The position numbers and the translations under genes are program-made. 64,000 nt of DNA from Ignisphaera sp. GTDB lineage: Archaea > Thermoproteota > Thermoprotei_A > Sulfolobales > Ignisphaeraceae. The stretch is from positions 23,206 through 87,205 of the forward strand of contig JAPWTX010000002.1 in assembly GCA_028275825.1 (NCBI GenBank), written 5' to 3'. The notes under the pieces are model-generated. The model did no database searches and had not been told where the DNA came from. It saw nothing but the letters and a program-made list of their open reading frames with translations. Of this stretch, positions 59,538 through 64,000 are shown in pieces; the first letter of the stretch is position 1; each line of letters begins with the position of its first letter.

Positions 59538-59686
59538 GCCTCTGCTTAATGAAATCCTTACTTATAAATGTTGCTGTTAACACATCCCAATGAGTGGATA
59601 CAGAATATGTATATCTCGTCATGATTCAGAACAAATCTTGCTTAAAGAGCAAGAAATGATCCAAAAATGTTGTGTAAAAATTTTTG

Positions 59687-60604
59687 TTATTTAGTTGTAG
59701 AAAGCATTGCTTTACCTATTTCATAAGCAGCTCTAAAATCAAATATTCCCTTCCGCTCTTGTAATGCCTTCTTAATTAACTCAGCCTCTATTTTATTTTT
59801 AAGCGTACCTATAGCTAGTGCACCAACGCCATATACTCCAGGCACAACCTCCTTTCCATCCAACTTCGGATCAAGCCCCTCTATGCCATAGGGTGGAACC
59901 GCATTACAGTCTGCAACTACCTTCACTCTTTTTCCATATGTTTTTAAGGTGTTTAATGGGAGGAGCTGCACTCCTGGAGCACCTGTTGCAAGCACTATAT
60001 CTGCATCCTCTATAGCCTTACCTACTTCCTCTGAGGCTCTGGCCTGAAAAGGCTTTACAACATCTGTCTTCAGCTCATCATTTATTTTAGAGGCTATTTT
60101 CTGAGCCTTGGCAAAATCTCTTGATGTTACAACAACTTTCGCTGCTTTCTCAGCAGCATAAAGCCACGTAGCTGCAATCCCTACAGGACCTGTGCCAGCT
60201 AGTACTGTAACATTTTTGCCCTCAATAACACCTAAACCCAGTTTCTGCGTCACCTCTAATGTTTTTACTACAGCTGCGCTAGCAGTTGTGTAAGAGCCCC
60301 TTGGATCAACTATTACTGCAAGTTCAAATGGAGGAAACATGCATTTCTTTATTTTTTCAACAACAGCGTTTACAACCTCTAAATTACTTCCGTTAACAAA
60401 AATCTTAGTAAATTTTACTCCCTTTGGACCTCTGGGAAAGAGAGCATCGTAAACTATTTTCTCAACATCTTCAGGAGTTACATTCTCATATTTGAGTACC
60501 ATGACATCAGGTACAAGGTCTATTGTCATAAGGATATCAAATGGGCTAGCATGTTTATCAGTGTCAATGAATATGAATACAGGTTTAAATCTCTGTTCAG
60601 ACAC
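59687..60604 (-). CDS. mtd: Methylene-H4MPT/H4F dehydrogenase, MtdA/MtdB family
   Basis: DTDKHASPFD, VTPEDV, PRGPKG, DPRGSYTTASAAV, LAGTGPVG, DCNAVPPYGIEG, GALAIG match the MtdA/B layout. Confidence 0.9.
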   Translation of the reverse strand: MSEQRFKPVFIFIDTDKHASPFDILMTIDLVPDVMVLKYENVTPEDVEKIVYDALFPRGPKGVKFTKIFVNGSNLEVVNAVVEKIKKCMFPPFELAVIVDPRGSYTTASAAVVKTLEVTQKLGLGVIEGKNVTVLAGTGPVGIAATWLYAAEKAAKVVVTSRDFAKAQKIASKINDELKTDVVKPFQARASEEVGKAIEDADIVLATGAPGVQLLPLNTLKTYGKRVKVVADCNAVPPYGIEGLDPKLDGKEVVPGVYGVGALAIGTLKNKIEAELIKKALQERKGIFDFRAAYEIGKAMLSTTK

Positions 60605-60614
60605 TACTCCCGCC

Positions 60615-61388
60615 CTACTTTTTCCTGATCCTCTGCAATGCTTTTAAGAGTTCTAAATCTCCTTGATAATCTCCAGCACATGTTGCTATAATTCCATCAA
60701 CAAGATTCTCAAGCTTTTCAGCAAATTCAACAGCTTTATCAATTGTTGTTGTAGGGCTCCAACCAATCTTCTTCAGTATCTCCTTATTGCGGGGTGTCTC
60801 AATAAGGAAGTATGTGTATAGCGGCTTACCCACCTTTTTTATCTCCTTAGACACCTCTTCAAGTACTGGCAATGTTTCTGGTGTAAGCCTTGCAAAGAAT
60901 GCAAAGTCCCATCCGCTCTTCACCCTTTCAATCATATCTTGCGCAGTAAACCCTGCTTTTGTTTTTTCACCATACCTCTCCCTTACGGGCCTTGGTGATA
61001 AGAGACATCCAAGTTTCAAAGCCTTTATCTTAACCTTCTCTCTCAGGAAATCCCTAGCACTCTCTGTTTTGCCCCAGTATTTCGGTCCCAAGGGCTCTCC
61101 ATATACTGGCTCATCACCCATAGTCATAACTATGCCATCCAGACCCACAGCATCAGCTGCTAGCGCTAAAGCCCCTACTTCTACAGGGCCCTTGTAATTC
61201 AATATAAATATCGGTATTACTATCTTATCAGGATACCTCGTCTTCAGGACACAGCCAACTGCAGTACCACTTGGTGCAGGAACTCCAGCTGCACTATCAG
61301 TTATATTCCAGCCATCAACAAGGTCCTTGGTTTCCTCAGCCATTTTCAAGAACTTTCTTGTAGGAACAAACTCATGCAAAACTTTCAT
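60615..61388 (-). CDS. MetF/MTHFR-like FAD oxidoreductase (short)
   Basis: NITDSAAG...IPIF...ALAADAVGLDGIVMTMGD resembles the MTHFR barrel; 10 bp upstream of mtd. Confidence 0.7.
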   Translation of the reverse strand: MKVLHEFVPTRKFLKMAEETKDLVDGWNITDSAAGVPAPSGTAVGCVLKTRYPDKIVIPIFILNYKGPVEVGALALAADAVGLDGIVMTMGDEPVYGEPLGPKYWGKTESARDFLREKVKIKALKLGCLLSPRPVRERYGEKTKAGFTAQDMIERVKSGWDFAFFARLTPETLPVLEEVSKEIKKVGKPLYTYFLIETPRNKEILKKIGWSPTTTIDKAVEFAEKLENLVDGIIATCAGDYQGDLELLKALQRIRKK

Positions 61389-61449
61389 GATGTTCGCCAG
61401 GAGTAGCTAGTGTTAGAGTAAAATTTAAAAACTTATAGTAATATTATAA

Positions 61450-62100
61450 CTATGTCTTTACAATAAGACCTTTTTCAATTAGTATACGCTCCACGTCAGC
61501 AACAACTAGTGTAGCATCGCGTGCGGCATCAATTTCTATGAGAACCCCCTTTCCCCTATAATACTCTATTACAGGAGCAAAAGTTTGCTTATATATCTTA
61601 TACCTCTCCCTAACAACCTCAGGCTCATCATCCTTTCTCCTAATCAAAGGCGTGCCACACACATCACATATTCCAGGGGTTTTTGGAGGTTTCCATGAAA
61701 TGTTATATATGGCACCACACTTAGGGCACACTAGTCTTCCGGATACCCTCTCTACAATTACCTCAACAGGAGCCTCAAAGAGAAATGCTACATCTATCTT
61801 AACTATTTTATCCAATTCCTCTGCTTGTCTCAATGTTCTTGGAAAGCCATCTAGTATAAACCCCTTGCTACACATAGGGCTCTGCAAAACTTTCTTCACA
61901 ACCTCAATAACAACCTCATCTGGTACCAGAAGTCCTTTCTCAACGTACTGCTTAACTTTTAACCCAAGTTCTGTGCCCTTAGCTATCTCCTCACGAAATA
62001 TATCGCCTGTTGAAATATGTGGAATTCCATATCTCTGGTTCAGCATTTTAGCATACGTACCCTTTCCGATACCCGGAGGTCCTATGAAAACTAGCTTCAT
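61450..62100 (-). CDS. adk: Adenylate kinase, bacterial type with Zn-LID
   Basis: GPPGIGKGT, HISTGDIFR, LDGFPRT, CPKC...CDVC, RKDD. Confidence 0.96.
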   Translation of the reverse strand: MKLVFIGPPGIGKGTYAKMLNQRYGIPHISTGDIFREEIAKGTELGLKVKQYVEKGLLVPDEVVIEVVKKVLQSPMCSKGFILDGFPRTLRQAEELDKIVKIDVAFLFEAPVEVIVERVSGRLVCPKCGAIYNISWKPPKTPGICDVCGTPLIRRKDDEPEVVRERYKIYKQTFAPVIEYYRGKGVLIEIDAARDATLVVADVERILIEKGLIVKT

Positions 62101-62492: not shown

Positions 62493-64000
62493 ATGCAGAT
62501 AAAGGAAGACAATATGAAGTATTTGTTTAAGCCAAGAAGTGTTGCAGTCATAGGAGCATCTAGAGAGCCTGGGAAAGTGGGTCACGCCATACTGAAGAAT
62601 ATTGTTGAGGGTGGTTATAAGGGTAAGGTGTATCCAATAAATCCAAATGCTGATAAGATACTGGGGCTTAGTGTATATAAAACTGTTTCAGATGTTCCTG
62701 AAGACATAGACCTTGCTATAGTGGTTGTTCCAGCGCAAGCTGTTTTGGATGTCATGGAGGAGTGTGGAAAGAAGGGTGTTAAGTATGCTGTTGTAATAAG
62801 TGCTGGATTTAAGGAGGTTGGTGGCGAGGGTATTGAAAGAGAGAAGAAGCTTATTGAAATTGCGAAAAAGTATGGAATTAGAGTTGTGGGTCCAAACTGT
62901 TTGGGTATAATGGATTTGCATACACCGTTAAATGCTACCTTTGCCTTAATGCCGAGAACTAGAGGGGGTATAGCATTTGTTTCACAAAGTGGAGCACTTC
63001 TTTCAGCAATTCTGGACTGGGCTCCTAAGGTAGGGATAGGGTTTTCAAAAATTGTTAGCTTAGGTAACAAAGCAGATCTCAATGAAGTAGATTTCTTGGC
63101 GCATCTGGGAGAAGACCCTGAGACAAAAGTGATATTGTTATATCTAGAATCCATAGTTGATGGAAGAAGATTTGTGGAGATAGGCTCTACTGTAACGAGA
63201 AAGAAGCCTGTAATACTGCTTAAAGGTGGTGTTACAGAGGCTGGGGCTAAGGCAGCTCTGAGTCACACAGGTGCTATGGCTGGAGGGGTTACGGCACTCA
63301 AAGCAGCATTAAGAAAGGCTGGGATTATTCAGGTGACAACACTTTCAGAGTTGTTTGACATGGCCATAGCATTTAATTCGCAGCCTATACCCATGGGAAA
63401 TAGAATTGGTGTAGTAACTAATGCTGGTGGTGGAGGGGTTATAGCATCAGATCTGCTTGTATCAAAAGGGCTTAGGCTTGCAGAGCTATCGAAGCACACA
63501 ATAGATTACCTTAGGAGTGCTCTACCTCCTGTAGCAAGCATATATAATCCTGTTGATGTTATAGGTGATGCAAAAGCTGATAGGTATAGAACAGCTATTG
63601 AAGCACTGCTCAGAGATCAAAACGTTGATGGACTTTTAGTCATATTAACACCACAAGCTGTGACAGAACCTGAAGAAACAGCTAAGGTCATAATACAGCT
63701 GAGCAGGGAGTATTCATCAAAACCTCTTCTAGCTATATTTATAGGGGGAGAGAAGGTGGAGAAAGCCACAAAAATGTTGATAGAAAACAACATACCAGTA
63801 TATGAAATGCCTGAAAGAGCTGTTGTTGCTATGCTTGGACTTGCCAGCTACAGAGAGTTTAGAGAATATGTAACAAAAGTTGCGGAGCACATGGAGATTT
63901 TTGATGTGGATAAAGAAAGAGTTTTGGAGATTATTGAGGAAGCTAGAAAGCAAGGTAGAAAGGTATTGTTAGAACATGAGGCTAAGGAAGTTGTGAAGAG
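62493..64000 (+). CDS. ADP-forming acetate/acyl-CoA ligase, alpha-beta fusion, truncated by window end (not in ORF track)
   Basis: GGAG RBS; MQIKEDNMKYLFKPRSVAVIGAS, GPNCLG, SQSGA, SHTGAMAG, NPVD; continues into LLEHEAKE (ATP-grasp start). Confidence 0.93.
   Translation, partial: MQIKEDNMKYLFKPRSVAVIGASREPGKVGHAILKNIVEGGYKGKVYPINPNADKILGLSVYKTVSDVPEDIDLAIVVVPAQAVLDVMEECGKKGVKYAVVISAGFKEVGGEGIEREKKLIEIAKKYGIRVVGPNCLGIMDLHTPLNATFALMPRTRGGIAFVSQSGALLSAILDWAPKVGIGFSKIVSLGNKADLNEVDFLAHLGEDPETKVILLYLESIVDGRRFVEIGSTVTRKKPVILLKGGVTEAGAKAALSHTGAMAGGVTALKAALRKAGIIQVTTLSELFDMAIAFNSQPIPMGNRIGVVTNAGGGGVIASDLLVSKGLRLAELSKHTIDYLRSALPPVASIYNPVDVIGDAKADRYRTAIEALLRDQNVDGLLVILTPQAVTEPEETAKVIIQLSREYSSKPLLAIFIGGEKVEKATKMLIENNIPVYEMPERAVVAMLGLASYREFREYVTKVAEHMEIFDVDKERVLEIIEEARKQGRKVLLEHEAKEVVK

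Follow-up and report, generated by a model that had tools for sequence, protein, structure and literature searches.

To our knowledge, Mer is the only kind of methylene-pterin reductase shown to act on tetrahydromethanopterin (H4MPT). Three kinds of this enzyme are known, namely Mer, the FAD- or FMN-containing methylenetetrahydrofolate reductase (MTHFR) and the mycobacterial Mfr (PMC11094777). An MTHFR of the MetVF type has been proposed to stand in Mer's place in ANME-1, Syntrophoarchaeum, Bathyarchaeota and Verstraetearchaeota (PMC9012536). Hot-spring Bathyarchaeia have been reported to be mer-less, with an 'alternative and unknown' enzyme invoked for them (PMC8407382), and Archaeoglobi metagenome-assembled genomes (MAGs) have been reported without mer and metF, for which bypass routes were proposed (PMC7380581). 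H4MPT-linked genes and the Wood-Ljungdahl pathway are already known from Ignisphaera (PMC5020050; bioRxiv 10.1101/391417); the former had also been named as known in a preliminary description of the DNA studied here. That DNA, a stretch of 64,000 nucleotides (hereafter the window) from a contig of the hot-spring archaeon Ignisphaera sp., carries two adjacent genes, one encoding a 257-aa MetF-like protein and the other a 305-aa homologue of the methylene-pterin dehydrogenases MtdA and MtdB. From sequence and genome comparison, we consider it probable that the pair forms an operon for the two middle redox steps of an H4MPT-type Wood-Ljungdahl methyl branch in an F420-less Ignisphaera. What would be new is a Pfam-invisible, MetV-less enzyme of the MTHFR superfamily in Mer's place.

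Taken alone, the 257-aa protein has no match in Pfam, NCBIfam or the PDB sequences, and the Pfam MTHFR model stays silent even at E ≤ 1. A narrow alignment of 20 family sequences searched against the PDB returned chance matches alone (GDP-mannose dehydratase, steroid isomerase, P450), as did the single sequence, and a broader family profile was therefore needed. Its homologues number 654, many of them with E < 1e-100, and those that are 60-91% identical come from Ignisphaera and Desulfurococcaceae MAGs, Bathyarchaeia, Culexarchaeum, Archaeoglobales and Hadesarchaea; some homologues are labelled 'MTHFR' in JGI and UniRef, while at NCBI they are hypothetical. The family is small and compact: 1.84 billion cluster representatives were searched exhaustively and gave 88 clusters, nearly all of 225-265 aa. 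It is present in at least 278 species-level genomes. Three distant members give weak-to-significant matches to the Pfam MTHFR model, among them P0180 at 29.3 bits (cut-off 24) and P0172 at 21 bits. When a 49-sequence family profile is run against the PDB with hmmsearch, the significant matches are all MTHFRs, the best being the Thermus enzyme 1v93 (E 2.4e-6), and MTHFRs make up 16 of the 21 entries listed at E ≤ 1. Profile-profile alignment with hhalign against 13 MTHFRs (E. coli MetF and 12 archaeal canonical MetFs) gives Prob 98.9 and E 2.3e-16 over 238 columns; against E. coli MetF alone, Prob is 72.7. The 'MetF-like' label of the preliminary description thus stands as a statement of remote homology and fails at the level of Pfam.

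The AlphaFold2 (AF2) model of the protein is a (β/α)8 TIM barrel with a predicted local distance difference test score (pLDDT) of 81, and its best Foldseek TM-score, 0.68, is to Thermus MTHFR, so that the protein does model as the MTHFR-type barrel that had been anticipated for it. Fold was dropped as a discriminator between MTHFR-like and Mer-like proteins, as a wide structure search could not separate MTHFR from luciferase-like and F420 enzymes. E6 and D92 show at least 90% conservation among the 49 aligned family sequences, and hhalign pairs them with E. coli E28, the catalytic Glu of β1, and E. coli D120, the pterin-binding Asp after β4. These are the catalytic positions A and D common to MTHFR, Mfr and Mer (PMC11094777). 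A maximum-likelihood tree places the window-type proteins in a tight monophyletic clade with a long stem (100 in the Shimodaira-Hasegawa-like approximate likelihood ratio test), nested in a broader short MTHFR-like family and well apart from canonical MetF. Within the MTHFR superfamily, the 257-aa protein stands out as short and deeply divergent.

Comparison with the described reductases shows both shared and distinguishing features. With FAD-dependent MTHFR (MetF, PF02219; E. coli MetF, Thermus 1v93) the protein has in common the (β/α)8 barrel, the E28/E6 and D120/D92 pairs and the proposed type of reaction. In contrast to MTHFRs of about 300 aa, however, the window clade spans 241-257 aa, roughly 40 residues less, is missed by the Pfam model and branches separately on its long stem; equivalents of Q183 and H88 are not evident in the alignment, and the proposed substrate is H4MPT instead of tetrahydrofolate (H4F). 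The MetVF-type proposal rests on the same idea, an MTHFR-family enzyme at the Mer step of the H4MPT pathway, and an mtdA-metV-metF operon is found in two genomes of our sample (G240 and G183). MetVF-type proteins, though, are canonical, Pfam-detectable MetFs of about 300 aa that always stand beside MetV, whereas the window protein belongs to a different clade and no MetV was found in its genome. Mer (TIGR03555, luciferase-like) has the same proposed reaction and pathway position, a TIM barrel, a catalytic Glu on β1 (jMer E6, PMC11094777) and a similar site near cdh, but no sequence relationship to it was detected, F420-biosynthesis genes were not found in the window's genome and the two distributions are mutually exclusive. 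Mfr of mycobacteria (8bgr, 7wmz), a flavin-independent methylene-H4F reductase, is likewise a divergent small MTHFR-like barrel and offers a possible model for direct hydride transfer from NAD(P)H to the pterin. No description of the MetF-like family was found in the literature, and the papers on Culexarchaeia and Methanoglobus are silent on it.

The partner protein is more easily placed. The Mpt_N domain (PF09176) is detected by Pfam in the 305-aa protein at 74.8 bits against a cut-off of 27 (E 6e-21), and in a phmmer search of PDB sequences residues 9-300 match the Methylorubrum extorquens MtdA structures 6tlk, 6tge and 1lu9 (E 3e-44), with the GTGPVG Rossmann dinucleotide motif aligned. The preliminary description was right to call it MtdA/B-type, and its sequence securely assigns it to the MtdA/MtdB family. 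A 'TSR' after β2 stands opposite the 'CGR' of MtdA, which hints that the enzyme may be NADP-linked. Full-length alignment, Mpt_N domain and Rossmann motif are all common to the methylotroph enzymes; these, however, belong to a formaldehyde-oxidation module, whereas the present homologue is archaeal and sits in an anaerobe containing carbon monoxide dehydrogenase/acetyl-CoA synthase (CODH/ACS). Elsewhere, MtdA-type Mpt_N domains also occur in open frames that, at 587-614 aa, are roughly double the usual length (G045:C10:29806-30048, G204:C73, G125:C144, G077:C3:30161-30403), which suggests a fusion of MtdA to another domain in some Bathyarchaeia-like genomes.

The genome from which the window comes (G000; 1.81 Mb, 86 contigs, 98.45% complete) has the surrounding pathway. 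Mch, Ftr and FwdA are encoded on contig C13, and the genome also encodes cdhA-B-C-D-E, RACo, CooC and RFAP synthase (mptG). Neither Mer nor any luciferase-like candidate, judged by TIGR03555 membership, was found in this 98.45%-complete genome, and the same holds for F420-dependent Mtd, FolD and Fhs, and for CofH, CofD, CofE-like and FrhB-like genes. Canonical MetF was likewise not found in it (no Pfam MTHFR match at E ≤ 1), nor was MetV (no PF12225 match at E ≤ 0.1); the neighbours of the MetF-like gene are adk and mtdA, and no other candidate for the Mer step is visible in the genome. The genes that the preliminary description had named as telling therefore come out in its favour, with mch, ftr and mptG present and mer and the F420-linked genes not found. 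Given that FolD, Fhs, FrhB, the Cof proteins and MetV were not found while RFAP synthase, Ftr, Mch and Fwd are present, H4MPT with an F420-free electron donor is the economical reading. Dependence of the whole family on F420, as CofE-like and FrhB-like neighbours in Bathyarchaeia might have it, was rejected for the window's genome, where F420-biosynthesis and FrhB-like genes were not found.

To compare distributions, we scored an even sample of 251 Thermoproteota genomes for Mer (above the TIGR03555 cut-off) and for a strong MetF-like orthologue (E < 1e-90). Mer is present in 33 of the 251 genomes and an intact MetF-like orthologue in 29, while both are intact in none. The 62 genomes with Mch divide into 32 with Mer, 17 with the MetF-like protein, 7 with canonical MetF only and 6 with none of these. 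One takes the place of the other between members of genera g48, g59 and g69, as it does between members of family f32, so for Mer and the MetF-like protein the pattern does not stem from one ancient split. In genus g59, displacement of Mer in situ was considered but is not claimed, as in G077 compared with G190 and G234 both genes lie 5-8 kb from cdh but at different positions. MtdA-like genes accompany the MetF-like gene in 13 genomes, Mer in 5 and neither in 3, and F420-dependent Mtd occurs alongside the MetF-like gene in 9. As separate observations, a Mer-containing genome (G206) carries at C26:10000-10248 an 83-residue C-terminal piece of the MetF-like gene, interrupted by an in-frame TGA and apparently left over as a pseudogene. 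At G216:C3:63538-65070 the MetF-like gene and a canonical MetF stand back to back; the latter is truncated to model positions 79-287, has one in-frame TAG and may be a decaying copy beside its replacement.

Gene neighbourhoods, counted over 80 homologue loci, point to the same part of metabolism. The MetF-like and mtdA genes are directly adjacent at five of the 80 (L009-L013, the closest relatives, 81-91% identical), as well as in G184. L009-L013 share the order cdhD-cdhE-RACo-cooC, about 5 kb, MetF-like gene, mtdA, and the window region is on this ground part of a Wood-Ljungdahl island that is split in the present assembly. The MetF-like gene is the last of a cooC-cdhABCDE-RACo-cooC series in G235, of the same genus, and at L007, L008 and L016, and it lies 5-11 kb from cdhC in 7 sampled genomes of 4 families. 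It is directly followed in G045 by F420-dependent Mtd, which is non-homologous to MtdA, and the operon of G240 reads fwdA-ftr-mch-fwdC-mtdA-metV-metF, with a canonical MetF; that of G183 is similar. A methylene-H4MPT dehydrogenase beside an MTHFR-family gene is a recurring theme assembled from different parts. Other flanks recur as well, with a CofE-like gene (PF01996) beside the MetF-like gene at 37 of the 80 loci, as is usual in Bathyarchaeia, and an FrhB-family gene directly beside it in G190, G234 and at 7 of the 80. Bathyarchaeial examples of FrhB/FdhB-family (F420- and FeS-binding) and CofE-like flanks lie at L097:10729-13301, L098:3959-8017, L039, L058, L059, L066, L080 and L086; in lineages that contain F420, such flanking genes could form a module that supplies the reductase with electrons.

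The family also reaches lineages in which a Mer gap had been described. Five MAGs of the study that reported mer-less hot-spring Bathyarchaeia carry the MetF-like gene (L034, L038, L045, L046 and L079; JAGTQB, JAGTQG, JAGTQI, JAGTQL and JAGTRA), and so do three Archaeoglobales MAGs (L030, L032 and L074), which are not tied to the bins of PMC7380581. The MetF-like barrel may fill the 'missing mer' gap of several other archaeal groups.

Homology, genome content, complementarity to Mer and gene neighbourhoods together support the central suggestion of the preliminary description, that the pair would be an F420-independent branch from methenyl- to methyl-pterin with the MetF-like protein in the role of Mer. 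In the scheme we propose, the 305-aa MtdA homologue would interconvert methenyl- and methylene-H4MPT with NAD(P)(H), replacing F420-dependent Mtd, and the 257-aa MetV-less protein would interconvert methylene- and methyl-H4MPT, replacing F420-dependent Mer. E6 on β1 would protonate methylene-H4MPT to give the 5-iminium cation, by acid catalysis as in MTHFR, Mfr and Mer, while D92, after β4, would hold the pterin, and delivery of hydride would then yield methyl-H4MPT. This product would be exchanged with the CdhDE corrinoid of CODH/ACS and would probably also feed MtrH-like and MetE-type methyl transfer. We infer that the substrate is H4MPT rather than H4F, and likewise infer the direction of flux; NAD(P)H is our default guess for the hydride donor, and a bound flavin is possible. 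By textbook values, the methylene/methyl-H4MPT couple lies near -320 mV, which would make NAD(P)H thermodynamically adequate and the step reversible. The methenyl/methylene-H4MPT couple lies near -390 mV, and an NADP-linked MtdA would for this reason favour the oxidative direction.

Several observations weigh against this scheme or limit its reach. In the hhalign alignment with the 13 MTHFRs, A166 stands opposite E. coli Q183 (position C) and no obvious aromatic residue stands opposite F223 (position B), two residues that contact pterin, pABA and NADH, although the C-terminal half concerned is aligned with low confidence. The position of E. coli H88 is His in the broader family consensus but Ile in the window-type clade, which makes flavin binding uncertain. 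Related genomes in the 251-genome sample are not independent, and 12 of its 29 orthologue-bearing genomes showed no Mch. Many carriers also have F420-dependent Mtd, and some have FrhB-like or CofE-like neighbours, so F420 independence does not characterise the whole family. The mtdA adjacency is confined to the closest relatives; the preliminary description had looked to conservation of the pairing across Thermoprotei, and this holds for the nearest relatives and not more widely, where other contexts substitute, which counts in part against the pair as first conceived. Finally, the gene is kept without Mch, CdhC or MtdA in G211, a genome of the window's own GTDB genus assembled as a single closed contig of 1,875,953 bp, and the MetF-like protein is therefore not exclusive to the Wood-Ljungdahl pathway.

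The case of G211 bears on an alternative in which the 257-aa protein would be a housekeeping, anabolic methylene-pterin reductase that, like E. coli MetF, provides methyl groups for methionine synthesis and for corrinoid/MtrH-type methyltransferases. The G211 copy is 72% identical and convergent with a gene for an MtrH-family (PF02007) methyl-H4MPT methyltransferase (L100:8112-10127), the genome encodes a strong MetE, and the gene looks like an anabolic methyl supply without the pathway; weaker short MTHFR-like relatives are also widespread in Thermoproteota that lack the pathway. We nevertheless regard this alternative as unlikely for the window protein. It invokes the same chemistry and differs in flux alone, and it fits poorly with a gene that in many genomes closes a cdh operon or lies near cdhC, that is strictly complementary to Mer within genera and that has no competing candidate in a 98%-complete genome. 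Both sets of observations are most simply read as a general lineage of methylene-pterin reductases, from which the H4MPT Wood-Ljungdahl branch recruited or co-opted the window-type clade, whose members can still furnish methyl groups for anabolism.

A second alternative, to which we give slightly less credence, retains a reductase but changes its partners, with methylene-H4F or another pterin as substrate, or with electrons drawn from FrhB-like protein plus F420, from ferredoxin or from an Hdr-type module and not from NAD(P)H. In genus g28, a copy with 49% identity occurs in 8 of the 17 genomes sampled, in the absence of Mch and CdhC (the G071 copy is 262 aa, L099:7218-12320). Its neighbours are genes for a URO-D-type methyltransferase, a xylose-isomerase-like barrel and formate-tetrahydrofolate ligase, and adjacency to this last gene suggests that the g28 copy may use H4F, a further point to be weighed against our scheme. 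The FrhB-family and CofE-like neighbours counted above lend this alternative weight, as does the range of cofactor arrangements known among MTHFRs, which include FAD, FMN plus MetV and no flavin at all (PMC13001107, PMC11094777). For the window's genome, however, it would have to do without FolD, Fhs, FrhB-like, CofE-like, CofH, CofD and MetV proteins, none of which was found there, and to account for the presence of RFAP synthase, Ftr, Mch and Fwd. We find it very improbable that the protein is not a redox enzyme at all but a pterin-binding barrel that either carries methyl-pterin or serves CODH/ACS or MtrH as an accessory in methyl transfer, with the mtdA adjacency a by-product of local rearrangement. 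Its catalytic Glu and Asp hardly vary throughout the family, its distribution complements Mer specifically and not any methyltransferase, and its gene adjoins two unrelated methylene-H4MPT dehydrogenases. An MTHFR-derived reductase working with MtdA in the H4MPT branch remains our preferred reading for the window.

A broader claim can be built on that reading, which we put forward tentatively and hold to be possible rather than likely. The 241-257-aa clade would then constitute a fourth class of methylene-tetrahydropterin reductase, MTHFR-derived, H4MPT-specialised and free of both F420 and MetV, that serves as the general 'missing Mer' and, with MtdA, gives a fully F420-free archaeal methyl branch. 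Under this doubtful extension, hydride might pass directly from NAD(P)H to the pterin, as in mycobacterial Mfr, and the archaea concerned would be Ignisphaera, many Bathyarchaeia, Culexarchaeia and some Archaeoglobales and Hadarchaeota.

The two genes lie 10 bp apart on one strand, exactly where the preliminary description had placed them (Table 1). In the direction of transcription, the MetF-like gene ends in a TAG stop and is followed by the 10-nt spacer and the GTG start of the MtdA gene, and both spacer length and the downstream N-terminus are kept in the relatives L009-L013. Both open reading frames (ORFs) are real genes, given the 654 homologues of the one product and the match of the other to MtdA structures. 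An NAD-dependent sugar epimerase/dehydratase gene lies downstream of the MtdA gene. Spacing, TATA-like boxes and hairpin together fit a bicistronic unit, although the evidence for a terminator is weak because hairpin and T-tract sites in the scan are as numerous as chance predicts. A metatranscriptomic library (X1) contains short contigs at least 99% identical to parts of both genes, at a depth of 2-4; one contig of 223 nt covers 60411-60631 and crosses the spacer, with fewer than 31 nt on the far side, below the bridging criterion. These contigs are a weak hint that the pair is expressed, and carry-over of DNA is possible; no meaning attaches to the stretches that they leave uncovered.

Table 1. 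Coordinates in the window of the gene pair and of features around it.
Feature	Position	Strand	Basis and proposed role
MetF-like gene, 257 aa, ATG start	60615-61388	minus	ORF listing; proposed methylene-H4MPT reductase in place of Mer
MtdA/MtdB-family homologue, 305 aa, GTG start	59687-60604	minus	ORF listing, Pfam Mpt_N, phmmer; NAD(P)-dependent methylene-tetrahydromethanopterin dehydrogenase by homology
Intercistronic spacer GGCGGGAGTA, 10 nt, GGGAG Shine-Dalgarno-like motif	60605-60614	minus	Sequence read
adk/MetF-like intergenic region, 61 bp, putative promoter	61389-61449	minus	A/T-rich TATA-like boxes
TATA-like box TTTTTAAATTTT in the 61-bp adk/MetF-like gap	61420-61431	minus	Sequence read
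Hairpin and T-rich tract, possible end of transcription unit, 33-51 nt past the MtdA stop	59636-59654	minus	Terminator scan
ADP-forming acetyl-CoA synthetase (706 aa), 5' part, runs past the window end	62493-64000	plus	ORF listing
adk (adenylate kinase), upstream of the MetF-like gene	61450-62100		

Past the end of the window, the same contig carries the rest of the ADP-forming acetyl-CoA synthetase gene and genes for a DRTGG/AAA_26 protein, a DUF3786 protein and a second CooC, and it ends with a TnpB-like gene. The full synthetase gene (L089:5699-7819) encodes CoA_binding, Succ_CoA_lig and ATP-grasp_5 domains, and this neighbour links the region to acetyl-CoA/acetate metabolism. The synthetase, DRTGG/AAA_26 (Pta N-terminal-like) and DUF3786 genes lie between cooC on one side and adk, the MetF-like gene and mtdA on the other (window 62493-64000, L089:5699-10193), and G235 shares the synthetase, DRTGG and adk neighbours with the window. 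At the end of this contig (C42), a 382-aa ORF with a Cas12f1-like TNB (TnpB-type) domain overlaps the start of cooC (L089:11654-12802, that is G000:C42:91653-92801), and the cdhABCDE-RACo cluster stands at the start of contig C13; probably a mobile element split the Wood-Ljungdahl island here, or the assembly broke at this point. Elsewhere in the genome, an MtrH-like gene (6726-7604 in L119:4753-10766, G000:C21) has as neighbours 4-HFC-P synthase (MfnB, of methanofuran biosynthesis), an ATP-grasp ligase and subunits of a membrane-bound energy-converting [NiFe] hydrogenase. A weak MetE/URO-D-like match of 30 bits lies about 2 kb from RFAP synthase (G000:C84:31846-35643), and a strong MetE, present in G211, has no counterpart in the window's genome.

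The MetF-like family escapes the standard models of Pfam and NCBIfam. If our reading is true, it would close the reported 'missing mer' gap and alter predictions of carbon fixation and acetogenesis for abundant subsurface and hot-spring archaea, and the H4MPT pathway would be able to run without F420. As a small, thermostable, single-subunit target, the MetF-like protein makes this proposal directly testable at the bench.

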